Below the pieces are notes generated by a model. The model did not search any database. It was not told the origin of the DNA and worked only from the letters and a program-made list of their open reading frames with translations. A stretch of 64,000 nucleotides of DNA from positions 96,001 through 160,000 of the forward strand of contig JAJREF010000002.1 of the NCBI GenBank assembly GCA_047459655.1, written 5' to 3'. The position numbers and the translations under genes are program-made. Positions 6,207-62,232 of the stretch are shown here, piece after piece. The stretch is from Rhabdochlamydiaceae bacterium. Lineage in GTDB: Bacteria; Chlamydiota; Chlamydiia; Chlamydiales; Rhabdochlamydiaceae. Within the stretch, counting starts at the first letter, position 1, and each line of letters begins with the position of its first letter.

Positions 6207-7618
6207 TACGCTCCTTTTTTCTTTAATCTAGCGCCCGTAGGGGTATCTTCTATGGCAAAGCCCTTGGCAAGTAAAAGATCTCTGCAGGCGTCTGCTTCTT
6301 TCCAGTTTTTTGCACTTCTTGCTTCTTCTCTTTTTGTTAAGAGAAGAAGAAGATCGCCTGAAACATCTGCTTGTTTAGTCCCTAAAGGCAGTACTCCCAG
6401 TACTTGATCGATTTGCTGGAGAAAGTCAAGCGTTTTCTGCGCATCTTCTCTGCTGACTTTATCTTCATCAGCAAGGGTATTGAACTGCCTAATCAGTTCA
6501 AAGAGCGCTGCAAACGCTAAAGAGATATTGATATCATCAGAGAGTGCCTCTGAAAAAGCTTGGTGGGTTTGTTTAAGGAGGGGCTCTACTAAGCCAGCGC
6601 TTTTCATGGTTTCTACACTTTTTAGGCGCAGGATAAAATCTTCTATTCTTTGAAGCGATTTAGCAGCTGCGTGAAGCCCTTCGATCGTAAAGTTCATCTG
6701 CGTGCGGTAGTGGACTTGGAGAAGCATGTAGCGAACTTGGAGTCCTGTAAAGCCTTGTTTGAGTAAGTCTCTGAGAGTATAGAAGTTCTTAGCACTTTTT
6801 GACATTTTGCGATGATCGACTAAGAGGTGTTCAACATGGAGCCAATATCTTACAAAGCGCTGTTTAGAAAAGGCCTCTGATTGAGCAATTTCATTCTCGT
6901 GGTGGGGAAACATATTATCGACCCCACCTACGTGGATATCGACGGTGTAGCCAAGGATTTGCATGGCCATCGCGGAACATTCGATATGCCACCCAGGACG
7001 CCCCTTACCAAAGGGACTTTCCCAAAAAATATTGCCATCCCGCTCATGATCGTACGCTTTCCAGAGAGCAAAGTCAGAGACATGCTCTTTATCATATTCA
7101 TCTCCTGCGGTCCTCTTAGAAGCCCCCGCTTGGAGATCACAGAGCTGTAAATGGGAGAGCCTTCCATAGGAAGGAAACTTTGTAATGTTATAGTAGATGC
7201 TGCCATCTGATCCTTGATAAGCGATCCCCTCTTCTAGCAGTTTTTCAATGATCTCAATCATCATTCCAATATAATCGGTTGCAAGGGGGTAATATTCTAC
7301 AGGCTCAATACCTAGCTGGCTTAAGTCTTCAAAAAAGGCAGTGGTATATTTTTCTGTGAATGCTTTTAAAGAAACCTTCTCGCTCAGAGCTCCCCGAATG
7401 GTCTTATCTTCTACGTCTGTGATATTCATAGCCTGGATCACTTGCATCCCAAAAAATTTTAAAGAACGTCTAAGCAAATCTTCAAAAACATAGGTCCGGA
7501 AGTTTCCAATATGGGCGTAGTTATAAACAGTAGGGCCACAGGTATACATGCGGATGATATTGCCCTCTGCAGGGATGATCTCTTCTTTCTCTTTGGTTTC
7601 TGTGTTGAACAATTTCAT
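6206..7618 (-). CDS. cysS: Cysteine--tRNA ligase
   Basis: MYTCGPTVY, HIGN, GRPGWHIECSAM, KMSKS. Confidence 0.97.
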   Translation of the reverse strand: MKLFNTETKEKEEIIPAEGNIIRMYTCGPTVYNYAHIGNFRTYVFEDLLRRSLKFFGMQVIQAMNITDVEDKTIRGALSEKVSLKAFTEKYTTAFFEDLSQLGIEPVEYYPLATDYIGMMIEIIEKLLEEGIAYQGSDGSIYYNITKFPSYGRLSHLQLCDLQAGASKRTAGDEYDKEHVSDFALWKAYDHERDGNIFWESPFGKGRPGWHIECSAMAMQILGYTVDIHVGGVDNMFPHHENEIAQSEAFSKQRFVRYWLHVEHLLVDHRKMSKSAKNFYTLRDLLKQGFTGLQVRYMLLQVHYRTQMNFTIEGLHAAAKSLQRIEDFILRLKSVETMKSAGLVEPLLKQTHQAFSEALSDDINISLAFAALFELIRQFNTLADEDKVSREDAQKTLDFLQQIDQVLGVLPLGTKQADVSGDLLLLLTKREEARSAKNWKEADACRDLLLAKGFAIEDTPTGARLKKKGA

Positions 7619-10295
7619 TTGCAAAGTAGCTCATCTAAAGCACGGTAATGTGTCTTTCCTGTGCCGGTTAAAGGGATCTGTCCTATTTTACGTACTTCCC
7701 CAATTTTTATAATAGCGCCGTGGCCATGTTCTCTCAGAGCTTGGTTAACTTCTTCTCTAGAAATATCAAATGTTGCAAAAAGGACAATTGTCGGCTTTTC
7801 ACTCTCTCTTTCTAAGACAGACACCGCCAGGGCAGGACCCTCTAATTGTAACGGAAGTGGCCATTTTTTATCGAGTGCTAGAAGATAAAGCTCTTCTTCA
7901 AGCCCCCCTAAGCTCACCATCTCCCCCAATTTTGGCAAAACGCTTCAGCCTGCCTGAAATCAATAAGTTACCCTCATGGTCCATGAATCCTTTATCGCCG
8001 GAGCGGTACCAATTTTTACCTTGAATTGTAATAAAAGGAATTTTTTGAGATCCTAAATACCCATAAAAAACGTTAGGACCTCGGATACAGATCTCCCCTT
8101 CTTTACCAATAAGCAAAGGGATATTTGTCTCCACATCGATGATGCAGATATCAACACCAGGGATCGGCTTGCCAACACCCTTCTTCGGTTTCCCAGGCCT
8201 CGTAATACTCACAATAGGAGCACACTCGGTAATTCCATACCCTTCAATGATTTCCTTGCCACCACCCAGCTTCTCAACATAGTCAAATAATTCTTTGGGT
8301 GTTTTTTCCGCTCCCGATACGATGTAACGAAGGCTCTCTAGTTGCTCAGGTGTTGCTACTTGAAACACCCCTTTGATAAATGTAGGCGCGCAGCAAAAGA
8401 TGGTGGCTTTCCACTTACCAATTTGTCTTCCAATCAAGTGATAGTCGGTAGGATCTGGTGCATAATATACCCTCATTCCTGATAAAAGGGGGAAAAGACC
8501 GGTCACAGAAAAGCCAAAGGAGTGAAAAGGGGGCAAGACCCCATAAAAAATATCTTTAGCATTAAAATCGACGCAAGAGAAGCCTGCTTGCTGATTTGTT
8601 AAAATATTATGATGAGAGGAGGAACCCCTTTAGGCAGGGTTTCTGTGCCACTTGTAAATAAAATAACAGCTTGATCTGTGTCGCGGATGTCTCTCAAATC
8701 AAAATCTTCCAATAAGGCTTCTGCATCTTTTAGAAGATGATAAAAACCAGATAGTTTATCGCCAAATGTGATTTTCTCTTTTATCTCTTCCAATAGGAGG
8801 AGCATATCTTCAATAGGATCTAAATCAGCGTTCTTGACATTATTTAAAAAACGCCTAGAACTGAGTACATGGCGAAGGTGGGAATTTTTTACACAGTGCT
8901 CTAGCGCCCTTGCTCCTACCGTCCAATTGAGCATTACAGGAATTTTTTTAGCTAAAAGCGTTGCAAGGATCACTAGATAAGTAGACGCAGAAGAGGAAGG
9001 AGAATTCCGATATATTTCCCATCTAGCTTTTGTAGCTTTTTAGCAAGAATCAAGGCGCCGAGCTTAAAACGTCTATATGTCATCACGCCGTTTGAAGATA
9101 TCTGCACATGCTACTGAGCCATCCATCCGATCACAGGCTCTTAAGAAAGCTTCTTGGATTGTCTCTCCTGTAGGCGCAAGAGCAGGCGGCCTTGTTCTTT
9201 CTTCAGGCCATCCTACATGTGCTATTTCATCTGGTTTTTCCTTTTTGTTTCCACTGCGCCACTAATCGCGCGCAAGATATCTCCTACTGTCTCTATTGGG
9301 CTAGCGGCTAAATCCTCTAAATCATATTTGTTTTCTAGAAAAAGATATAGATCAGCCATGTCTAAAGAATCAAGCCCAATATCGCGCGATAGGTGAGACT
9401 TTCTTTCGATTTTTTCTGGACTTTGACGGGAAATATCGGAAATCTTTTTCGTAACTTCTTTTTCAATTTCAGGAGAAATGGTGATGTTTGTCTGCTCCAC
9501 AGCTACTTGCTCTTGGAGAGCTGTTGTGGGTAAGCACTCCTTCCAGAAGCGATCTGACACCAGTTTAACAGGCTCTACTTCGGGCGTGTTGTACCACCGC
9601 TCTAAATATTGATTCATCTCCAGGCGAGAGCCTTTCAAAGGGAAATCTTGTGGGGGTAGCTCTATTTCAACTGAGCACATCTCTTTTAGGGGTAAAAAAA
9701 ATACCATTTTTAAAAATTGACTTAATGCCTTCTATAAGAACTTTGCCAAAATCAGGTCTAGATCCACTCACGGCTTTAGAAAATCTACTACCCCACAGTC
9801 CTGTTGTCCGTATGAGTACAATATTCAGGTCAGGGCACGCTTGTACTAAATTATGTACTAAGGAAGCCCCTCCTATTTTTTCTCCATTAGAGACTCTTAG
9901 TTTTCCAGCTGGGTAGATGAGAAAATTATCCCCCTCTCGCAATTGCTCTTGGATATCACTAAAAAGCCTTTCAATCTTCTTCTCTTTCCATTTATTGGAA
10001 ACTCTATCCATCATATCTGGGATGGGAATTGCTCCGACAAGCTCCATCAAGTAGCGAATACCAGGTAAGTAATAAAAATGCTCTATGACCAAAGAATGAG
10101 GCTGAAATTTCCCCATAGTATTGTCATTAGAATAACAGGATCAATCTCGGCAGGGTGGCTAGGAAGAAAAAGCGTACCGCTCTTGTTATGGAGCCGCTTA
10201 AGATTTTCTAGCCCACGCACGTGCACGCGGTAGCGTAGGCGTAAACAAGTTTTGACAATTACAACGATGAACCATGTCCCAATCTTTTTCAACAT
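7615..10295 (-). CDS. aas: Aas-like acyltransferase / acyl-carrier / acyl-ACP synthetase multidomain protein (several frameshifts)
   Basis: HPAEID and YPAG (PlsC-like), GLDSLD (ACP-like), LFTSGTETLPKGV, EGYGITE, YRSGD, GRLKRFAKIGG, TGK (AMP-binding) in consecutive ORF pieces. Confidence 0.85.
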
Positions 10296-11127: not shown

Positions 11128-11553
11128 CTACGATTTTTTTAGGAACTGGAGTAATGCCTTACACATTGATTTGGACTCATTAAAAAAAAGATGAGATACA
11201 GCTTCTTCTAACAACACCCATTTTGCATCTTGGATCTCTTCTTCTTGTAAAATCAAATCTCCTGAAACAATTGCAGGGAAATAGGACACTTTTTTTTGAA
11301 TAATTTCCTGTTTACGATAAAATCGGTATTTTTCTACCAGAGGATCATCTTGCAAAACGCTATCCACGTTAAGGCCTGTTTCTTCTTTTAATTCGCGCTC
11401 TGCTGATTGAAGAGGGCTTTCTCCTGGATTACCATGACCTTTTGGAAAGGCCCAATGCTTTCCTTTTTGATGAAGAACGAGCAGGACATGCCAATGGGAT
11501 TGCCTCCAAATTAGAGGAATGATTCCAAAGGATTCCTCTTGTACTACGCGCAT
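11128..11553 (-). CDS. NUDIX hydrolase (Ap4A hydrolase-like)
   Basis: WAFPKGH and Nudix box GNPGESPLQSAERELKEETG, downstream of fabF as in Chlamydia. Confidence 0.9.
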   Translation of the reverse strand: MRVVQEESFGIIPLIWRQSHWHVLLVLHQKGKHWAFPKGHGNPGESPLQSAERELKEETGLNVDSVLQDDPLVEKYRFYRKQEIIQKKVSYFPAIVSGDLILQEEEIQDAKWVLLEEAVSHLFFNESKSMCKALLQFLKKS

Positions 11554-11566
11554 GAGCTATCCTTTA

Positions 11567-11730
11567 GGGGTTGTAAAACAATAAAATGAACGATTTCACC
11601 GCGCCAAATCAATCGAAAATCGATGATCGGAAATGGGGTTATATCCCTATGAATACTACCCCATTTCCGATCGTCGATTTTAGACGATTTTACGCTGGTC
11701 AAATCGTTCATTTTATTGTTTTACAACCCC
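11567..11730. mobile_element. Palindromic MITE-like element A1 (164 nt, TTA direct repeats)
   Basis: GGGGTTGTAAAACAATAAAATGAACGATTT...AAATCGTTCATTTTATTGTTTTACAACCCC, near-fully self-complementary. Second copy at 37737-37900. Confidence 0.9.
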
Positions 11731-12980
11731 TTATAGGGAGCAATAATCATGGAAGAGTTATGCCCGCCAAATCCAAAAGCGTTGATAAGAGCTGCAGTTA
11801 CAGTGAGATCTTGAGCTTTACCAGCAACAATATTTGTAGAACCAAGCCCCTCTTCAGGTTCGTCGACATTGATGGTGGGGTGGATTTTTTTCTTAAGAAT
11901 CGCTTGTAGAGCTACAACTGCTCCAAAAGCACCTGCGGCTCCCAATGTATGACCAATCATAGATTTTGTGGCATTGACAACTATCTTATCCATCTGGCCA
12001 CCAAATACTTTTTGAAGTCCAAAAATTTCACACATATCTCCAGCCGGAGTAGATGTTGCATGCGCATTCACATAATTGATGTCTTTTTTGGAAATTCCTG
12101 CATCTTCGATTGCTTTTTCCATACAGAAAGCTACCTCAGTGCCGTCTTCTCGAGGGCTAGTCATATGGTAAGCATCACAATTGACAGCCCCACCTAAATA
12201 TTCCCCAAGAATAACAGCTCCCCTAGCAAGCGCATGCTCTAAACTCTCCAGAACCAAAACAGCTGAGCCTTCTCCCATAACAAACCCATCTCTTTTTTTA
12301 TCCCAAGGGCGAGAAGCTTTTGTGGGTTCATCATTTCTTTCAGACAAAGCTTTAATAGCAACAAACCCTGCGACACCAATAGGAGTAAGCGGAGCTTCTG
12401 ATCCTCCACAAAGCATGAGATCTGCTTCTCCCCTGCGAATATGCTCTGCGGCTGCATTAATCGAGTAACTACCAGTTGCACATGCTGTCGAAATTGAGTA
12501 GTTCGGGCCCTTAAAACCTAGGTCAATTGCTAAAAGAGCTCCACACATGTTGGTAATAATATAAGGGACAAAAAAAGGCGTAAGTCTTTTAAAGCCCTGA
12601 TTTAACAGTGTTCCAACACCGTCATAAAAAACATTCATCCCACCCATCCCAGAACCTATGATGATTCCACAACGCTCTTTATTTAGCGTCTCTAAGTTAG
12701 GTCCTAAAAGGCCCGCTTGCTCCAAGGATTTTTTCCCAGCTACCATTCCATAGCGAATATAGGGATCTATACGCCTTGCTTGTTTTTTATCAATGTAGTT
12801 CTCTGTATCGAAAGAAAGAACGCTTCCTGCAAAGCGAGTAGGGTACTCTTCGCAAGGGAACTGATGAATCGCGGAGACTCCACTTTTTCCATCAAGTAAA
12901 TCCTGATAGAACCGGTCAACATCGTTTCCTAAGCAAGATACGATACCCATTCCTGTAATAACAACTCTTTTTTTAGACAT
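11721..12980 (-). CDS. fabF: 3-oxoacyl-ACP synthase II
   Basis: KRVVITGMG, STACATG, NAHATST, KSMIGH, FGFGGHN. Confidence 0.97.
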   Translation of the reverse strand: MSKKRVVITGMGIVSCLGNDVDRFYQDLLDGKSGVSAIHQFPCEEYPTRFAGSVLSFDTENYIDKKQARRIDPYIRYGMVAGKKSLEQAGLLGPNLETLNKERCGIIIGSGMGGMNVFYDGVGTLLNQGFKRLTPFFVPYIITNMCGALLAIDLGFKGPNYSISTACATGSYSINAAAEHIRRGEADLMLCGGSEAPLTPIGVAGFVAIKALSERNDEPTKASRPWDKKRDGFVMGEGSAVLVLESLEHALARGAVILGEYLGGAVNCDAYHMTSPREDGTEVAFCMEKAIEDAGISKKDINYVNAHATSTPAGDMCEIFGLQKVFGGQMDKIVVNATKSMIGHTLGAAGAFGAVVALQAILKKKIHPTINVDEPEEGLGSTNIVAGKAQDLTVTAALINAFGFGGHNSSMIIAPYKGL

Positions 12981-13059: not shown

Positions 13060-13390
13060 TTCGCATGTTCGACTATCAAGGGCGTGGATAGAATACTTCC
13101 TTACTTTGAAGAGGACCTCAAGCAGGGATATTATCCTTTTATATTTGAAGACCCCAATTCTTACTATGAAAAAATCTCTAGAGTCATTGGGAAAACAATT
13201 TTTGAAGATATAGCAAACTACTACAATTTGAAAACGCCCAATCTTCAGTACTTCAAGAAACTACTGACATATCTTGCTTCACCCCCCCGGGAGAACTAAA
13301 TATGCACAATTTAGCCAAGAACTTGGGAATAGATCACAAAACAGTAGAACACTACGTGTCGATTTTGGCTTCTGTTGGGCTCATTAGGGA
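13060..13390 (+). pseudogene. Internal fragment of an AAA+ ATPase (AAA_14/DUF4143-like)
   Basis: FEEDLKQGYYPF...IFEDI...LAKNLGIDHKTVEHYVSIL...GLI across a frameshift. No Walker A region; ends at element B1. Confidence 0.6.
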
Positions 13391-13549
13391 GTCTCTGGAT
13401 AAGTGCTTTGTCGGAGATTGCTGATCAGTTTTTCGAAGACGACGATTTTGGAGAACGCAGCTAACATGTAGAATGTTAGAGAGTTCGAAAAATCTAGTAT
13501 TCGCAAAAATTGGCGGCAAGATTTGGCAAATGACTTGTCCAGAGGTTCC
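13387..13549. mobile_element. Palindromic MITE-like element B1
   Basis: Degenerate left end and ACTTGTCCAGAGGTTCC right end, TTA on both sides. Highly similar to 19109-19270. Confidence 0.85.
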
Positions 13550-13951
13550 TTAAAGGGGAAATTCCGCTTTTTCTTTTTGGGTTTCTTTATTAGCCCCTAC
13601 GTTAATAGTAAGGTCGACGATTTTTCCCTCTTTCCAGAGCTGCTCAAGCTGGTATTTATCTCTGAGACCTGGCTGGAAAAGATGGACCATGATGTCAAAG
13701 AGATCAAGAACAGCCCATTCCCCTTCTTTAACTCCTTCTGTATGCTCGACTACTTCGCCCTTTTTTTCTAGAGCTTCTATGATAGCCTTACCGATAGCGC
13801 TTACATGGCGATCAACATTACCTTCTGCGATAATGACGTAATCTGTCATAAAAGAAACGCCTCGTACATCGAGAGCTAGGATGTTAATCCCTTTTTTATC
13901 GTAGATTGTTTGCGCAATGAGATTCAAAGTGTCTAAGGGATCTCTTTTCAT
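13550..13951 (-). CDS. rsfS: Ribosome silencing factor
   Basis: DKKGINI..DYVIIAEG..RHV..EG..WAVLD..VHLF..R..Y.LEQLW. Confidence 0.93.
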   Translation of the reverse strand: MKRDPLDTLNLIAQTIYDKKGINILALDVRGVSFMTDYVIIAEGNVDRHVSAIGKAIIEALEKKGEVVEHTEGVKEGEWAVLDLFDIMVHLFQPGLRDKYQLEQLWKEGKIVDLTINVGANKETQKEKAEFPL

Positions 13952-18106: not shown

Positions 18107-19306
18107 TTACTTGTCTAGTGAGAAAAAAGATTCATTTATAAGATCTGCTATTTCCCTTTTCATAGTTTTTTTGTACTCAAGCCACCATGCATAACACTTT
18201 GCACGAAGCGCTTCTAGCTCCACAGGGTTTTCTAATAATTTTTGGACAATAGCTGGCGCCTCACCCAAGTATTAACTGCCAAGAAAGGATAATCTCCCAT
18301 TAGCCTTTGGAAATAATCAAAAGGAATTTTTTCAACAATCGAAATACAACCACATTCCAAGGCTTCGCAGACTCTAAAGCAATCAAAATTCCAACAACCC
18401 TTAGGGCATGGCATAAAGGTGGTATTTAGAAACAAGTTTCGATACTCCTCAATAGAAAGAGAATCTGGCCCATTAAAAGACATGATCTCATGTATAAAAT
18501 AGTGAGGAATATTTTCATGCTTGGAGCCATTGCTATTCGGGTGCTTTTGGTAATCTGCCCTGCAAAACTCCAGTTGTACATCCGCTTAGAAACCTCTTAA
18601 TCTCAGGGTGCATCCCATCTCCCCAAAAAACCTGCTCGTATCCGAATAGAAAAAATTTGATCTTTGTATTTACAACCGCTAATGGCTGCTTTTTTCTAAA
18701 TATATTCCTTGTGTTCAGAATGGGTTTTAGAAATTTTTTATGCCAATAATTTCTTAAAACAAATGCGCAATACTGATAAAAGTTCGTTGATTCTGTATAA
18801 ATTTCATCTGATGAAATAATAGCGCCTACTTTGTATTTCATATCGTGTAATTTAGCAAAATAATGTTCAATTTTATCTCCAACTCCCCCACAAATAATGA
18901 TTGATTTATCCATGAAGATTTCATATTTTCCATCTACTACTTCTAATATTTCTCTTATCCAGTCTCGCTGATGAAATTTTTCAGGAAAGGCATCTAATGC
19001 TTCTATCTGCCAAATTAGATTAACGGTATAAGAAGACGCCAAAATACAAGATGATAAACATAGAGCGATAATTAGCTTAAATAGAAGCCTTCCAGATGTG
19101 GTAGTTAAGGAACCTCTGGACAAGTGCTTTGTCGGAGATTGCTGATCAATTTTTCGAAGATGACGATTTTGGAGAGCGCAGCTAACATGCAGAATGTTAG
19201 CGAGTTCGAAAAATCTCATATTCGCAAAAATTGGCGGCAAGATTCGGCAAATGACTTGTCCAGAGGTTACTTAAGCAATCTTTAAAAAAACAATCAGCCA
19301 AGACAT
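18107..19306 (-). CDS. Exostosin/GT47-like glycosyltransferase, frameshifted, with element B2 in its 5' region
   Basis: C-terminal FMPCPKG..DCFRVCEALECGCI resembles the GT47 signature; N-terminal hydrophobic segment. Confidence 0.55.
19109..19270. mobile_element. Palindromic MITE-like element B2 (162 nt, TTAA both sides)
   Basis: GGAACCTCTGGACAAGT...ACTTGTCCAGAGGTTAC with an internal GCTAACAT/ATGTTAGC hairpin. Confidence 0.9.
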
Positions 19307-26051: not shown

Positions 26052-27516
26052 TGTCAACGCAAAATAGAAATGTCCGCTTTTCTCCAATTTAGAAATGTCC
26101 TCTTTGGATGTTCTGATCTTCATTGGACTTGTCCGTTTTTTATCTAAAATACCCATTTTCAAAAGCTCTTCTCTTATCTCCACGGGTGACTCCTTGAAGG
26201 TTTTTGAGGTTTTTTGTTTATCCAATTAAGTGCTAAATCTATTTCTTTGGACATCACAATTTTCCCTTGCGGTTCTTCCCCATATATCTTGTATTTTAAC
26301 TCCTTGCCCTTATACAGCACTCTTACCCGTCCATTGAGATCTTCTAGAAGCATGACTTTTGCTTTCCTTAGAGTGTATGATGATCTTTCACTATCGATCT
26401 GATAAAGACTGTTTTTGTATTGGAAGCTTAAGTTTTTAGAGAGACATCGGATTTCCTGGTAACTGAAAATCTCTTCTAAGTTCTCTTCTGGTTTTAAAGC
26501 TCGATGAGCATCTTCTGCGTTTCTAGGAGCTACGGCAAATTTTTTGTTATACTTCTCTATGAACTCGGGAATCCATTCATTTGCCTTTTCAATAGTTGAA
26601 ATATTTTTTTCTCTCATCTCCTTGACTAAACGATCTTGCAATGTTTGATTGGCTTTTTCAACTCTTCCTTTTGCCTGGGGTGTATTGGCACAAATGAGCT
26701 TGATATCGAGTTTTTTTAGGACTCTTCCAAACTCTGTCACTCCATTACCAGATACAGCTTCTTTGTGGTTGACTCTAAAAACTCCATATTTATCGCTGTA
26801 GAAAGCAAGTGGTTTTCCACATCTCTTTAGATACCTTTTTGTCGCTTTAAAATAAGATTCTGTTGTTTCACCAAGAGAAAAAAACAGCTCGACAAGTCTA
26901 CTAGTTGCATCATCAATGTATACTAAAAGGGTACACCTGGGTCCTCTATTTTCAAACCAGTCATGGGGAGATCCGTCTATTTGTACAAGATCTCCATACT
27001 GACTCCTTCTTGGTCTCATCGGGTGGATAACTGCCTTTTTAGCTTTTTTAGGAGACCAAATATTTTCTTCTATCATCCATTTCCTAAGCGTCTCTATAGA
27101 CAATGTAAGCTTATGTTTTTCCTCTAACTTTTCTTGAGCTAACGTAGGGCCATAATCTGCATAATGAGCGGAAATCAGCTTTAGGACTTGTGATCTAAAA
27201 GCTTCTGTTAACCTGCGATTACTAGGCTGCCCTCTCTTTTGGAAACTAAGCCAGCTTCTCCATGCAGTTCGTAAGCTTGTTTTAAACGTCTAACTTGTCT
27301 GGCTGTTATCCCCAGACGTTGTCCCACTTCTATCTGGGAAAAGCTTTTTCTTTTTAAATTGCGCATCATTTCAACTCTTTCTAATTCTCTTCTGCTCATA
27401 GTTATCAACTCCTTCACTCTCACCTCCTTTCAAAAACAAATTTGAATGAGGTCAGTATCTTCAAAAGAGGACATTTCTATTTAGCAGAAAGAGGACATTA
27501 TCATTTTGGGCTAACA
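26052..27516 (-). mobile_element. Insertion sequence, IS1202-family-like (ISNCY), 1465 bp with 14/15-bp target duplication
   Basis: Ends TGTCAACGCAAAATAGAAATGTCC and GGACATTATCATTTTGGGCTAACA; repeated subterminal TAGAAATGTCC; flanks CAAAAA(A)GGGAATGA at 26038-26051 and 27517-27531. Confidence 0.9.
26174..27423 (-). CDS. DDE transposase (frameshift near 27230)
   Basis: N-terminal HTH (LGITARQVRRL), QIDGSPHDWFE, YIDDATS, YSDK, PQAKGRVEKANQTLQDRL. Confidence 0.92.
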
Positions 27517-27567: not shown

Positions 27568-28923
27568 ATGGATATCATTAGCTCTCTTACTATTAGTAGA
27601 CAGATTAACTTTAAAACCGTTTCTCACGCTGCACCTCTTATCATTCAGGCAGCTTTATCTATTTTAGGAGGCTTAAAAGGCCCTCTTAGTCCAGGATTAA
27701 AAGGTATCGCTACATTCGTTATCCCAGGAATTTCTTTACTTGTTTTACGAAGTTTCTCCTTGCCTTGTAGATTAATAACAGTTGCCTGTATAGTAAATTT
27801 TTTATTCGAACAGTTAAATCCCAAAAGTGAGAATCCAGATCAACATAGAGGCCCTAATGACCTTCAAGTCGCTCCATCGATCCCACCCACTACAGCTTCA
27901 TTACAAGAAGAATTAAAAAAAGCCCTTTTAGATCTTGGGATGGCAAGAGAAGAGAATCTTCAATTATTGGAAAAAACTCGTTTAAAAGCTCTTACCGAGG
28001 AAGGTAGTAGACAAGAAATACAATCTCTTAGAAAACAAGTCGTTGCACTTGGTGGTCAATTACCAGAATTAACCATTAGCAATGTAATTGATCAAATCCA
28101 TCAAAAACAGGAACAGTTGCGAGCGCACCATTGGAGCAACTCTCCATTTTTTAAAAATCTATTAACTCATTACCAAGTTCACTATAATCCTCCTCAAGCA
28201 GATGTATTACAACTAACAGAAACTGCGATTGGGAACCATCTAAACACTAACGGTCAAGTTAAATTTTCTATTCCTTTCGCTAATTTCCATAGAAATTGCC
28301 TAGATGCCTTAAACTTAAATAAGAACCCATCGGAAGCAACTTTGGAAAGTGAAAGACGATTTCGACTTTCAGCAAAATTTGACCCCTTTCCCAGATGCTT
28401 AACAATGATATCTAATGGAGCAAACCCAAGATTTCCAAGCCAACGCCAAGTGGGGAATTATATCCTTGTTAACTCTACATATGGAGAAATAACTAATTTT
28501 TGGAAGATAGTAAAAAACCCGTACCCTGAATATGGGACTAGCTTACAACTTAATGTCTGTTCACAAGATGATCCAGATAGATTTTTTCTTTCCATCTCTG
28601 CAGCATCTTTCGCTATTTGTAATACTGGAGCTCATGTGCCCCTCGAATCGTATCCCTCCTCATTTCAAGAATTCCTTAAGAATGATAAAGCCGTACGCGG
28701 TATTATTGATGATTACCTCTACGACACCAATTTTAGATATCCCTTTATGTTTTGGGGAGATGGTGACCGTGAATTTTGTAGTACAATGGATTACTTGGGA
28801 TTATCGGCGTGTCTTTTTCTCCCTGGTACTATGACAAAAACAGGAAGTCAGCTTTCTGAAGCTGTTCTAGTGCTTGGGGAAACTTGTTCTACACAAATAC
28901 GTAAGCTTTTGACCCCTCCCTAA
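27568..28923 (+). CDS. Hypothetical protein: hydrophobic N-terminus, coiled coil, globular C-terminus
   Basis: Intact 451-aa ORF; hydrophobic residues about 20-80, heptad-rich region about 110-185. Confidence 0.75.
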   Translation: MDIISSLTISRQINFKTVSHAAPLIIQAALSILGGLKGPLSPGLKGIATFVIPGISLLVLRSFSLPCRLITVACIVNFLFEQLNPKSENPDQHRGPNDLQVAPSIPPTTASLQEELKKALLDLGMAREENLQLLEKTRLKALTEEGSRQEIQSLRKQVVALGGQLPELTISNVIDQIHQKQEQLRAHHWSNSPFFKNLLTHYQVHYNPPQADVLQLTETAIGNHLNTNGQVKFSIPFANFHRNCLDALNLNKNPSEATLESERRFRLSAKFDPFPRCLTMISNGANPRFPSQRQVGNYILVNSTYGEITNFWKIVKNPYPEYGTSLQLNVCSQDDPDRFFLSISAASFAICNTGAHVPLESYPSSFQEFLKNDKAVRGIIDDYLYDTNFRYPFMFWGDGDREFCSTMDYLGLSACLFLPGTMTKTGSQLSEAVLVLGETCSTQIRKLLTPP

Positions 28924-28924
28924 A

Positions 28925-28990
28925 GGAACCTCTGGACAAGTCCTTCGTCGAATCTTGTTGCCAATTTTTGCGAATACTAGATTTTTTGAA
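28925..28990. repeat. Truncated element B4 (inverted relative to B1/B2)
   Basis: GGAACCTCTGGACAAGTCCTTCGTCGAATCTTGTTGCCAATTTTTGCGAATACTAGATTTTT is the reverse complement of the B1 right arm. Confidence 0.85.
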
Positions 28991-29043
28991 AGAAATCTAA
29001 CGTAGAAGATGCAGAAGAACTGCTAGAATTCATTTGACTCTTA

Positions 29044-32214: not shown

Positions 32215-32301
32215 ACTCACCTTACACAAAAAAGATAGGTCATGGAGTGTTTGAAAGCTGTTGAAACACTCCATGACCTATCCTTTTTGCGTAAGGTGAG
32301 T
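32215..32301. mobile_element. Palindromic element C1 (internally deleted, 87 nt) with TAAATA direct repeats
   Basis: ACTCACCTTAC..GATAGGTCATGGAGTGTTT / AAACACTCCATGACCTATC..GTAAGGTGAGT. Full-length copy at 50531-50693. Confidence 0.88.
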
Positions 32302-37736: not shown

Positions 37737-37900
37737 GGGGTTGTAAAACAATAAAATGAACGATTTGACCAGCGCAAAATCGTCTAAAATCGACGATCGG
37801 AAATGGTTTAGTATTCATAGGGATACAACCCCATTTCCGATCATCGATTTTCGATTGATTTGGCGCGGTGAAATCATTCATTTTATTGTTTTACAACCCC
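37737..37900. mobile_element. Palindromic MITE-like element A2 (164 nt, inverted relative to A1)
   Basis: Same termini as A1; flanks CAA / TAA. Confidence 0.9.
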
Positions 37901-37996: not shown

Positions 37997-38159
37997 GAGA
38001 CCGTTGCATAAGTGATCATGTTTGTAAAAATGCACATTTTGCGATCTTTCGATTTTCGCTCGCCCCTATGGGGCGTCCCCCATATGCGAGCTCGTTCAAT
38101 TCAAAGTTTCATCAAAATGTGCTACTTTTTCAAAACACGCTGACTTATGCAACAGTCTC
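37997..38159. mobile_element. Palindromic MITE-like element D (163 nt) with AATAT direct repeats
   Basis: GAGACCGTTGCATAAGT...ACTTATGCAACAGTCTC; internal GCACATTTTG/CAAAATGTGC stems; AATAT at 37992-37996 and 38160-38164. Confidence 0.85.
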
Positions 38160-43422: not shown

Positions 43423-44258
43423 GCAAAAAGCAGTTGTCATACCCTCTTCTGGTATTGGAGATGCTCTGATGATGATGATTGCCTCAGAGCATCTTCGAAA
43501 AGCTGGCATTGCTGTAACGACCATCTACCCCAAACTCCTTGAGCTCCAAGAGTGGTTTCCAGAGCATGTATTTGTGGAAGCTAAGGATTTTTCTCGTGAT
43601 GAGTGGGTGATTGTCCAAAATAATAATCTGCCTCATATCAATGTTTTAAAAAACACCTGCCGTAACCATCTCTCTATTTTGTACCCCACGTACTCCTACA
43701 ATAAACACGGGGCTATCACCCCTTTAAGATAGAGTTTTTAATGCAACGCAATCAATGGCAGACAATATTGCCATCGCGATTCACTCCCTAACAGGCCAGT
43801 GTAGTGTCTCGAAAGAAAACGGCATGACCCCTCCCTCCCACCTCTCTCACCGCCGACATCCTAACCGTGTGCTTATCCACCATACAAGCAGCGCCCAGAA
43901 AAAAATTGGTTAAAACATAAATACGATGCTGTCTTTAGAGGTCTTGAGAAGAGGATTTGAGCCGGTTTTTGTGCCAGAATTTGCTACATTGAGCAAGCTT
44001 GCCGCTTTTGTTTATGAGTCAGGTTTTGTGATTCGGTAACGATTCTCTTGTAGGGCATTTAGCTTCTAATCTAAGGATTCCTACGCTGATTATTGCAGAT
44101 CAATTTGATCGCATGCGCCTCTGGCGCCCCGGATGGTATCCAGGCGCTGTTGTCACTGTAGACAAATGGCTTTCACATTGGAAGTTCTTTAGAAAAAATG
44201 GCAACATTTTATTTCCCCTTCTCACGTGTTAAATATTTTTGATGGATTACGGAGGTAA
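43412..44258 (+). CDS. GT9 (heptosyltransferase-like) protein with multiple frameshifts
   Basis: GIGDALM N-terminus; downstream pieces VLIHHTS, KNW, GNDS..GHLAS.L.IPT. Confidence 0.65.
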
Positions 44259-44319
44259 TTGCAAAACTCAGGTTCAAAAGAACCCAAAATTCGAGTGAAC
44301 CTGAGTTTTGCAACTACCT
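44253..44319. repeat. Palindromic element E (67 nt)
   Basis: AGGTAATTGCAAAACTCAGGTTCA...TGAACCTGAGTTTTGCAACTACCT, 24-bp arms with one mismatch. Confidence 0.8.
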
Positions 44320-44335
44320 ACAAGGAGATTTTTTT

Positions 44336-50512: not shown

Positions 50513-50530
50513 ATACCCACGAATTAAATA

Positions 50531-50693
50531 ACTCACCTTACGCAAAAAGGATAGGTCATGGAGTATTTGAAAGCTGTTGATAAATCGAATTGCAGAAAAT
50601 GGGTAGTATTGAATGAAATACAACCCAATTTCTGCAATTTGACTTTCAACGCTTTGAAACACTCCATGACCTATCTTTTTGCGTAAGTTGAGT
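50531..50693. mobile_element. Palindromic MITE-like element C2 (163 nt)
   Basis: Same arms as C1 plus a central hairpin; flanks TAAATA / TAAACA. Confidence 0.9.
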
Positions 50694-50787
50694 TAAACAA
50701 AAAAACTTTAACACTCCAGCTTTTTATAGTCGATTAAATTTTGATTTACAACCTTACCTTACGCAACAGGTCTATTTTATTTCTTTA

Positions 50788-50924
50788 GGAACCTCTGTAC
50801 AAGTGCTTTGTCGGAGATTGCTGATCAATTTTTCGAAGATGACGATTTTGGAAAACGCAGCTAACATACAGAATGTTAGCGAGTTTGAAAAATAGACAGC
50901 AAGATTCGGCAAATGACTTGTACA
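50788..50924. mobile_element. Palindromic element B3 (internal deletion, eroded right end)
   Basis: GGAACCTCTGTACAAGT...ACTTGTACA, body collinear with B2. Confidence 0.87.
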
Positions 50925-50928
50925 AGCC

Positions 50929-51314
50929 CTAAGGTAAAAATCTCCCTTTAGAGAAGGCAACATCTTGAAAAGATATTTTCTTGAAAAACAAATGCCTGAA
51001 AGAGGCGATAAGACGATACAAAAGATCGATAAAAGGAATCACATAAAGCCACCCCACCCACCTCCATTTTCCGCTAAAGGAGCCATACTGTGCGAAAAAC
51101 GGCCTTCCCCACGCAACCACCTCCTTCCTTCAGGAGCCTCAACTAAAACCATCGTACTTTTATCAAAGTGAGCGTGCAGATGCCTACGCGCCGTCTGTCC
51201 GGAAAGAGGAGCAAATAAAAATTGTCTTTTTTTATCGTGGTGTAAAATCCACATCACAGCATTCTGACAAAGCCCACAGGTATCATCAAAAAAAATAAGG
51301 TGATGAGATTTTAT
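50929..51314 (-). CDS. DCC-family (DUF393) thiol-disulfide oxidoreductase, frameshifted, start uncertain
   Basis: LIFFDDTCGLC, FLFAPLSG, DLLYRLIASFR. Confidence 0.8.
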
Positions 51315-58607: not shown

Positions 58608-59285
58608 CTATTCATAGGTTAAAATTATCTGATAGTAGGATAAAGCAATCTTCCAGCCCCTATCTAAAAGATATTCTATAACTAGACGCCCTTTCCCGCC
58701 AAAAGGCAAGGCACAATCATCGATCATAATAATGCTTTTTGCATGAAGCCAAGGATAAGCAGCTATAATTTCCTTCAGATGATGCTCTTGTGATGGTAAT
58801 GGATCATCAAGATCAAAATCGTAGCTATCTAAATACAGAAAATCGATAGGTTTATTAAAATTTTCTAAAAACGTAACAGAATCAGACGCTACAAATGTCA
58901 TATGATCAAGGTAAGGCGTGCACGCGGCAGAAGAACATCTAACAGCCTCCGGATCAATATCCACGCTATAGACATAGGCACCATTCTGCTTTGCCCATTG
59001 ACCCCATATTGGGGTCGAGCATCCATCTCCTGCACAATTACACTCTCCATCGCGCGCAGTTCCTGTTTCGACAATCGTTCTTACCTTTCTTGCACTCATA
59101 AGATGGAGTGTATATTGAAACGTAACAAAACGCTTGTCTTGAGGAGGAATGCGATCTCTTAGAGAATTAAGAGAAGCATTTTCCATACAAATCTTCCGTT
59201 TTCGAAAGGGCGTCGCTTCTAATAAACCTGTTGCAGTCAATAAAACAACCCCACTTAACATAACAAATTTGCATCTTATAACCAT
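58608..59285 (-). CDS. Class I SAM-dependent methyltransferase with N-terminal hydrophobic segment
   Basis: IVETGTAR, YSVDID, IDFLYLDSYD, IMIDD, GKG. Confidence 0.85.
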   Translation of the reverse strand: MVIRCKFVMLSGVVLLTATGLLEATPFRKRKICMENASLNSLRDRIPPQDKRFVTFQYTLHLMSARKVRTIVETGTARDGECNCAGDGCSTPIWGQWAKQNGAYVYSVDIDPEAVRCSSAACTPYLDHMTFVASDSVTFLENFNKPIDFLYLDSYDFDLDDPLPSQEHHLKEIIAAYPWLHAKSIIMIDDCALPFGGKGRLVIEYLLDRGWKIALSYYQIILTYE

Positions 59286-61540: not shown

Positions 61541-62232
61541 ATGATAAAAAAAAACAGCGCTTATCATAGGATGTAGTTTACTTGTTGTAGCTACTTTTTC
61601 TGCTCTAAGAGCAGAAATACGCAAGCAACATAAGCAAGCTCAAAGTTATGCAAAAAAAGAAGCCGCAATTGTTTTAGGAAATAGAATTGCTCCTAGGGAT
61701 CAACGTTTCAATACCCCAAGATATGTACTTAAGCTGATGCATAAAAGAAAAATCAGAACAATCGTAGAAATGGGTACTGCTCGTAATGGAGAGTGTAATT
61801 GTACAGGAGATGGATGTTCGGCCCCAATATGGGGACAATGGGCCAAACAAAACGACGCTTTTATTTACAGCGTAGATATTGATCCTGAGGCTATTAGATG
61901 TTCTTCTGCTGCGTGCATGCCTTACCTTGATCATATGACGTTTGTAACGTCTGATTCCGTGGCGTTTTTAGCAAAGTTTAATAAACCTATCGATTTTCTA
62001 TATTTAGACAGTTATGATCTTGATCTTGCCAATCCCCAGCCATCACAGGAGCATCATTTGAAGGAAATTATAGCTGCTTATCCTTGGCCTCAGGCAAAGA
62101 GCATTATCATGATTGATGATTGCCGCTTTTCCTTGTGGAGGCAAGGGAAAATTGGTAATTCCCTATCTTTTAGACAGAGGATGGAAGGTTGTTTTATCTG
62201 GATACCAAGTGATTTTAATTCGTGAAACATAA
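61541..62232 (+). CDS. Methyltransferase, close paralogue of 58608-59285 (frameshifted)
   Basis: Near-identical peptide blocks, e.g. IWGQWAKQN, CSSAAC.PYLDHMTFV, PSQEHHLKEIIAAYPW. Confidence 0.85.

Follow-up and report, generated by a model that had tools for sequence, protein, structure and literature searches.

A palindromic MITE in the last codons of a chlamydial fabF gene, likely moved by an ISAzo13-type transposase

The fabF gene of a Rhabdochlamydiaceae bacterium, probably an environmental chlamydia, ends inside a 164-bp palindrome that separates it from a NUDIX hydrolase gene. We studied this junction in a stretch of 64,000 nucleotides (the window; G000:C2:96001-160000), where G000 denotes the source assembly (1.61 Mb, 41% G+C, 82% complete). 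Judged by its sequence, the palindrome is a MITE (a miniature transposon with inverted repeats), that is, ordinary selfish DNA. Our preferred explanation is that this MITE inserted at a TAA, that it was likely moved in trans by a transposase of the ISAzo13 type, and that the nearly unchanged end of FabF likely reflects chance combined with survival. We give this explanation a probability of about 0.78. The junction contains the following features, in window coordinates:

11721..12980, minus strand: fabF, beta-ketoacyl-ACP synthase II, 419 aa, ending PYKGL* (open reading frame (ORF) and TIGR03150 profile)
11731..11733, minus strand: fabF-side copy of the duplicated TAA target, not in frame (the T of TAT and the AA of AAG)
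11567..11730, unstranded: palindromic MITE (family A), 164 bp, non-coding, whole-length hairpin
11701..11730, minus strand: terminal inverted repeat, 30 bp, fabF side, ISAzo13-type end
11597..11690, unstranded: inner segment, 94 bp, between two AAATCG repeats, a diverged version of a chlamydia-wide core
11567..11596, plus strand: terminal inverted repeat, 30 bp, NUDIX side
11564..11566, minus strand: TAA target duplication, NUDIX-side copy
11554..11563, minus strand: remnant of the old fabF end, AGGA TAG CTC
11128..11553, minus strand: NUDIX hydrolase, 141 aa (PF00293)

FabF scores above the TIGR03150 cut-off (535 versus 494 bits), while the NUDIX protein has homologues that carry the names bis(5'-nucleosyl)-tetraphosphatase or MutT-like, the named ones coming mostly from Rhabdochlamydiaceae or Chlamydiales. 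On the minus strand, fabF reads CCC TAT AAG GGG TTG TAA (PYKGL*), with its stop at window 11721-11723. The inverted repeat on the fabF side, a perfect match to its partner, carries the G of AAG, then GGG TTG and then the TAA stop. This confirms the initial annotation, which had the element supply the last codons and the stop. Excision of the element and one TAA in silico reproduced the predicted ancestral order of PYKG*, CTC and ATG, so that the claim of a nearly unchanged FabF also stands: PYKG* became PYKGL*, a single residue added or changed. What is left of the former fabF end creates an AAAGGA of Shine-Dalgarno type, 6 nt 5' of the NUDIX ATG, which presumably acts as the ribosome-binding site of that gene. 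As to coding capacity, stops occur within 23 nt of each end of the element in all frames. On the mRNA strand the predicted RNA fold reaches -113.3 kcal/mol (z -19.8; none of 200 shuffles was as good), similar to the -108.0 kcal/mol of the opposite strand, and a long hairpin does now part the two genes, as had been proposed. In an Rfam search of the element no family came near its gathering score (best 42 bits versus 140). An identity as a known structured RNA was dropped, the only hits being weak, generic microRNA-precursor hairpins far below their gathering scores.

That the element inserted into the tail of fabF is close to certain. The comparison drew on the 30 top-scoring NUDIX loci in 41 genomes, 29 of these loci being from relatives. 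fabF lies upstream of the NUDIX gene in 28 of the 29, and the estimated gap between the two genes is -17 to +19 nt in 27 of these 28; here it is 167 nt. In G001, a genome of the same genus, the junction reads CCC TAT AAC GGG TAG TAT ATG (PYNG*, 3 nt, ATG) and aligns without gaps to the excised junction over 118 nt, which fixes the size of the insertion at 164 + 3 bp. This empty site, together with TAA or TTA duplications at 9 of the 10 family A copies, upholds the earlier proposal that the element truly inserted between formerly adjacent genes and duplicated 3 bp, TAA. In G002, another relative, a 4-nt deletion at this place gives PYEV* and an overlapping TAATG. The exceptional 28th locus, L011 (G013:C1) from another genus, carries a palindrome of 178 bp right at the stop of fabF; it is unrelated and has ends of the F type. 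Contigs of eight of 13 candidate sequencing runs at the fabF junction, where cover was thin, revealed no element-free allele in the same species, none of them skipping or spanning the element. A contig of run X2, from a strain ~97% alike in fabF, goes from fabF into the inverted repeat. Run X1 is possibly the source sample and was left out of the support. Its sequence is without one base at window 12293, and several window genes are also in pieces (e.g., 7615-10116); single-base errors in the G000 assembly are therefore possible.

In G000, family A has 10 copies: two of 164 bp, seven that measure 70 bp and a single one of 65 bp. The duplication of TAA or TTA is exact at the nine copies mentioned above. 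The second full-length copy also lies in the window:

37737..37900, unstranded: second full-length element A copy, 5 differences, flanks CAA/TAA

Two of the 70-bp copies equal the fabF copy exactly, minus positions 41-134, the part between the AAATCG repeats. Such copies may have arisen by slippage between these two repeats within the hairpin. Although they are without the core, they sit at sites of their own with duplications, and the copy at a radC-like gene has gap-free empty sites in both G001 and G002. DNA-level matches to the element were found in 3 of 41 genomes, two relatives having short or weak pieces only, whereas a looser pattern of the A-type end matched 17 of 401 chlamydial genomes (reversed control, 0). 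At a place where G000 is without the element (G000:C5:154686), a metagenome contig 88% alike has a nearly identical one, with a loose alignment beside the site. Scanning metagenomes for the A end gave six loci, none of them an insertion sequence (IS).

The element is thus short and non-coding, with terminal inverted repeats, target duplications with empty sites, and dispersed copies, as MITEs are. Its ISAzo13-like ends, together with a dead ISAzo13 relic in the same genome, point the same way. Other known classes fit less well. An in-frame insertion of the RPE type does not apply, since translation meets a stop 10 nt into the element and 167 bp were added. A REPIN/RAYT system would include a PF01797 protein, for which G000 gave no match, although absence is unproven in a genome that is 82% complete. 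An autonomous ISAzo13 is not what lies here either, there being no PF07592 ORF in the element.

A clue to the driver came from G005, where an unpaired match to the A end proved to belong to an IS of 1309 bp; its termini are A-like, it is flanked by a TAA duplication and it has an ORF of 413 aa. This ORF is an ISAzo13 transposase, intact at G005:C52:9661-10899 (PF07592, E 1.7e-137; NF033519, 576 bits versus a cut-off of 200). Relatives were found in 9 of 401 chlamydial genomes. Compared with the first 25 nt of A, their ends agree at 13-20 positions (20 in G048; 19 and 19 in G005), as against 14/25 for one IS1182 and 8-12/25 for two TWA-flanked IS5 elements. These figures refer to the IS ends that could be located rather than the full set, and the truncated end L386 was left out. 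TWA flanks were present at 13 of the 14 ends of seven two-ended ISAzo13 elements. G000 itself holds an ISAzo13 relic at C3:37459-37782, with 108 codons, 55% identity, three stops and one end that is 17/25 alike. From these comparisons an ISAzo13-type driver seems likely, with good though not complete confidence. In this mechanism, an ISAzo13-family DDE transposase would have acted in trans by cut-and-paste, with a staggered cut at TWA. The element would have entered fabF at a TAA that lay three codons short of its end, duplicating those three bases. The relic has a complex setting: the region G000:C3:36930-38330 is nested mobile DNA, with the ISAzo13 relic in a deleted IS5 copy that lies between F- and B-type elements.

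An alternative explanation might be that another DDE family drives the MITE, namely a TWA-targeting IS5-type element, IS1182 or IS630. The same bacterial family does contain IS5-type elements with TTA/TAA duplications (L272, L280, L312), IS5 copies and relics are present in G000, and one IS1182 has the 14/25 likeness to A noted above. We nevertheless consider this improbable, since the ends of IS5 and IS1182 reach only 8-14/25 against up to 20 for ISAzo13, IS1182 elements duplicate ATC, TCAC or GTGA within G+C-rich palindromes, and profile searches of G000 found no IS630 (PF13358) or DUF4096 (PF13340) transposase. Several candidate parents were rejected individually. The matches in G000 to PF13359, PF01609 and PF05598 (IS5, IS4-like and IS701-like, labels that are partly our own reading) have different ends. 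IS1182 (L116 and 16 related loci) was excluded on both ends and target, with genome G219 left out of the scoring. Ends could be recovered at 15 of 58 DUF4096/DDE_Tnp_4 loci, none of them A-like, and none of the ends recovered from 30 IS630 loci was A-like. Some IS1182 copies (L260-L264 in G318; L116 in G071) sit in the centre of G+C-rich palindromes, which in G318 lie inside larger inverted-repeat elements.

The initial annotation also held that the element almost perfectly repairs the fabF end. As a property of the element, this claim was not supported by comparison with the other copies. Depending on the frame, the stops of the A end lie at +10, +18 or +23 nt or in the duplication itself; since the A end thus has one in every frame, a copy that lies in the tail of a gene will always provide a stop. 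Four copies do so, and fabF is the only gene that kept its tail. The other three are listed below; the names metG, radC-like and sufE-like are our own reading of the sequences.

G000:C1:16313-16382: 70-bp A copy, supplies the metG stop
G000:C1:414988-415057: 70-bp A copy, supplies the sufE-like stop
G000:C2:50622-50691: 70-bp A copy, supplies the radC-like stop and also lies on the stop of a convergent gene

In these three genes 4-8 residues were rewritten. The metG tail became LGVVKQ*, where the excised sequence gives LGMGLIK* and G002 has LGKS*; the radC-like tail is LRDCEIIK* versus LKDAGLLG*; and the sufE-like tail is LMSFKTIK* versus LKACSL* in G002. The lysine of fabF was kept because the duplicated target supplies its AA, so that retention of the glycine is the sole true coincidence. 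Moreover, FabF tails after the conserved PY/PF vary in both length and sequence among 28 relatives (EV, NG, NP, RAS, TA, TP, HS, AFS). Because they vary freely, repair was not needed.

We also simulated insertions by placing the A end at TWA sites in the tails of 1451 ORFs. Within the last three codons, the protein was unchanged at 359 of 709 sites and differed by one edit at 23 of the 350 changed sites. Within the last 10 codons it was unchanged at 364 of 1825 sites and differed by one edit at 27 of the 1461 changed sites. The unchanged sites would mostly be those where TTA overlaps a TAA stop. Hence the fabF outcome is a 2-7% event among protein-changing tail sites, and it happened once in four. 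Insertions would survive only between genes or in the last codons, and with a stop within eight codons in every frame of the element end, surviving copies would often come to supply a stop. A broader census of 120 elements, with 7 of the 10 A copies among them, has 17 that fall on a stop. We therefore have considerable confidence that the near-perfect repair of fabF is coincidental.

The opposite possibility is that the end was selected as a self-repairing cap, which lands in gene tails and provides a near-synonymous ending and a stop, making the insertion harmless. The one-residue change in fabF and the frequent contact with gene ends (see below) would fit this idea, as would the leading G, which turns a TTA overlapping a TAA stop into TAG and is the inferred cause of most of the 359 unchanged sites. 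Against this, three of the four stop-supplying copies rewrote their tails, and the ends of autonomous ISAzo13 elements likewise begin with G and have the TAA of the AATAA motif, so that they are explained otherwise than by repair. Stops within eight codons are probably common in any A+T-rich DNA, and the fabF tails are free to vary. We regard selection for repair as quite unlikely.

Several observations weigh against an ISAzo13-moved MITE whose fit to fabF is fortuitous. The empty site is known from other species and not from a conspecific strain. An exact 3-bp direct repeat flanks only three of the seven two-ended ISAzo13 elements, three others having TTA...TAA and one ATA...TAA. None of the ISAzo13 elements found has the exact A end (best 20/25), no intact ISAzo13 was found in G000 at its 82% completeness, and the inner part of the element is not derived from the ISAzo13 ends examined. 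The one-residue change in fabF was somewhat lucky (23/350 and 27/1461). Finally, 5 of the 10 copies touch a gene end, while such positions make up 11.5% of the TWA sites that count as tolerated (P 0.003), although this null is rough because promoters, RNA genes and short ORFs were counted as free space. Survival by itself may not account for this, and the element may favour gene ends to some degree.

Next to the question of repair stands that of the hairpin in the operon. The hairpin would be co-transcribed, translation of the NUDIX gene would be uncoupled from that of fabF (gap from ~3 to 167 nt) and RNase III might cut the transcript, all as side effects. Lost translational coupling and RNase III cleavage at the hairpin are plausible in view of what is reported for other MITEs, which have been described as altering the stability of neighbouring mRNAs (PMC3733652 and PMC2229807). 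One might go further and suppose that the hairpin was kept as a regulatory element, either an RNase III site or an mRNA stabiliser that tunes NUDIX relative to fabF. The RNA fold is very stable and its predicted extent covers the AGG of the Shine-Dalgarno-like AAAGGA; the contig of the X2 strain runs from fabF into the inverted repeat; G013 has a different palindrome at the same junction; MITE effects on mRNA are reported as just cited; and G000 has an RNase III gene. Yet no such element occupies the junction in 27 of 28 relatives, and the two strands fold alike. A promoter/terminator scan found one promoter-like and one terminator-like site, the same as in shuffles, and no terminator-like site inside the element. 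The RNase III gene (G000:C2:202156-202808) has a frameshift near its catalytic signature, possibly an assembly error, and the second element, in G013, fits a tolerant site equally well. A retained regulatory function thus has little probability.

The inner part of the element belongs to a wider pattern. G000 contains 118 long palindromic regions, and a motif census recognised 120 elements, which fall into 13 end types and when full-length are mostly about 160-167 bp long. The duplication differs among end types, being 3 bp for A, D1, H and I, 4 bp for B (29/45), TA for F, 5 bp for G2 (7/10) and 6-8 bp for C (7/11). Some ends resemble those of IS: B those of an IS5 in G000, G and G2 those of IS5 in relatives, and F those of DDE_Tnp_4 elements. 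The inner 100 bp of the fabF element resembles that of the types C, D1, D2a and D2b (z 6.3-8.1 versus palindromic shuffles), whereas its outer 25 bp is unrelated to theirs (z -0.2 to 0.9). The cores of B, E, F, G and G2 differ from it (z at most 3.0). Among GTDB representatives the core pattern occurs in at least 116 stretches, and 71 of 80 among the matches listed are titled chlamydiae, of several families; three non-chlamydial matches that we inspected were chance matches. The core was found in 20 of 129 genomes of this bacterial family (control, 0).

The structure of the core appears to be conserved as well. Across 82 distinct cores, a 6-bp stem pairs in 443 of 492 cells (shuffles 218.5, maximum 244), and two positions are unpaired in 66 of the 82. 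Of the loci that could be extended without gaps, 29 of 31 measure 158-172 bp. Both arms were found at 77 of 120 loci; 68 of these show a left/right asymmetry, and at 8 the arms are alike, which hints at copying from one arm to the other. All these counts are overstated because the sequences were selected by pattern and are kin. We abandoned a dif-like interpretation of the 11-6-11 centre, since its length is not constant (31-39 nt between CGATCG boxes).

This core is also found joined to ends of the TA type that resemble IS630 ends, and at L353, L370 and L355 the A-type ends enclose another core. One core with several kinds of end, and A ends on another core, make ends and cores look exchangeable at the sequence level, although plain descent with fast-changing ends may be the cause instead. 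Tentatively, we can imagine a 'MITE chassis' of near-constant length (160-167 bp) common to the environmental chlamydiae, in which a hairpin core of ~100 bp carries ends of ~30 bp from different IS families (ISAzo13 with TWA, IS630-like with TA, and an end type with 6-8-bp duplications), with end switching by arm copying and a core held by a putative host or transposition factor. Since the element is a palindrome over its whole length, copying between arms could fix a captured end on both sides at once, and so let the element switch transposase. This broader scheme is considerably less probable than the history proposed for the fabF copy. No transposase homologue was found beside the core at the 116 core loci with 13 transposase queries, which did not include ISAzo13 and IS630.

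Very unlikely is movement as a folded single strand, by a RAYT-like HUH enzyme or an integron-like tyrosine recombinase that reads the mismatches and bulges of the inner hairpin, with the IS-like ends secondary: the fixed unpaired positions inside compensated stems, the arm asymmetry in 68 of 77 loci and the near-constant length across unrelated ends would suit it, but no Y1/RAYT transposase matched PF01797 in G000 (82% complete), the duplication length tracks the end type and not the core (3 bp in A, 6-8 bp in C with its related core), and the core-less 70-bp copies sit at sites of their own with duplications.

Among known systems, the ISAzo13 IS are closest to the fabF element in their ends, with the pattern G-G-R-Y-T-G-T..A-A-A..A-A-T-A-A, up to 20/25 nt alike, TWA flanks, and an exact 3-bp duplication in three of seven chlamydial examples. 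The element differs in having no transposase, in measuring 164 bp rather than ~1300, in being a palindrome over its whole length, and in an inner ~100 bp that is absent from the IS ends examined. ISAzo13 (PF07592, NF033519) has been paired with the eukaryotic Zator in PMC5718144; we found no published statement of an ISAzo13 target rule.

According to PMC2229807, PMC3184786, PMC3733652 and PMC10969869, the bacterial MITEs RUP (IS630-Spn1), Correia/NEMIS, ERIC and YPAL/RU-2 are similarly non-coding and 100-200 bp long, with terminal inverted repeats, target duplication, a long stable stem-loop, frequent positions at gene 3' ends, and filled and empty sites. Correia also has long and internally deleted short forms (155/107 bp). 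In these descriptions RUP, Correia and ERIC duplicate TA and YPAL 3-26 bp, as opposed to TWA here. The present elements also differ in their ISAzo13-type ends and in an inner core common to families with unrelated ends, of which we saw no account in these papers. The RPE of Rickettsia share whole-length palindromes of ~150 bp, several families, an obligate intracellular host and some positions inside genes (PMC2229807, PMC10969869, PMC3733652), but RPE fuse in frame whereas element A stops translation after 10 nt, a comparison by published description only. REP/REPIN-RAYT systems are likewise dispersed imperfect palindromes with conserved unpaired bases (PMC3733652), but the element has a DDE-type duplication and IS-like ends, and no RAYT/Y1 was found in G000.

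We found no description of chlamydial or ISAzo13-derived MITEs in the literature, mostly open-access main texts, including PMC9723776, PMC2878342, PMC13229535 and PMC9997750, and likewise none in PMC11602168, PMC9208149, PMC10969869 and PMC3184786. The main text of PMC11602168 names no chlamydiae; its supplements list MITEs of 183,232 genomes, and these families may be among them. Hence, a large chlamydial repeat family appears to be undescribed. MITEs at gene ends are textbook knowledge, and the fabF insertion, which changes a freely varying tail by one residue, matters little in itself. It does show cleanly by what route an element that targets TWA can end up providing stops, and it names ISAzo13 as the likely parent. 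If the modular pattern is true, the chlamydiae, usually thought poor in mobile DNA, would harbour a large, modular superfamily of MITEs in which a conserved hairpin stays while the ends are swapped between transposase families. This would offer a tractable case of how non-autonomous elements outlive their transposases and of what selects the inner structure of MITEs.

The window and its genome hold further members of these families. Family B palindromes of 162 bp with a 4-bp duplication lie at window 13384-13553, 19109-19270, 28918-28992 and 50784-50953. The census counts 45 of them, often in tandem, with ends like the IS5 at G000:C3:6644-7825. Both MITE ends are closer to the right end of that IS5 than to its left end, and the IS5 gene has an early stop. 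Family C palindromes, at window 32216-32300 and 50529-50695, share their core with A and have unrelated ends and 6-8-bp duplications; a parent IS of these ends was not found. A G2-type element of 163 bp, of the 5-bp duplication type and with ends like the IS5 of G111 (L102), is at window 37997-38159, and a short E-type element with ends like those of the DUF772/DDE elements L114, L115 and L122 is at window 44252-44320. An F-type element at G000:C3:40800-41660 has in its centre a 698-bp repeat, of which a second copy lies at C5:319175-319872. At locus L202, a D2-type element is flanked on both sides by 11 bp that match the end of the IS at G000:C3:5251, and the contig ends there; possibly, this is an intermediate in gaining new ends. 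Some contigs with the chlamydial core belong to bins whose titles name Acidobacteriota, Verrucomicrobiae and Alphaproteobacteria (L147, L150, L156, L194, L205), where it may reflect mis-binning or transfer.

Mobile DNA of other kinds is present too. Window 26052-27516 is a 1465-bp IS with TGT...ACA ends, which we labelled IS481-like; it has ~10 copies in the genome that are >99% identical, and an intact copy encodes a 416-aa transposase. A 1486-bp IS4-like element has ~8 copies in G000. The sequences at window 58689-59161 and 61675-62147 form an inverted repeat pair of 473 bp, 79% alike, and are probably paralogous genes.

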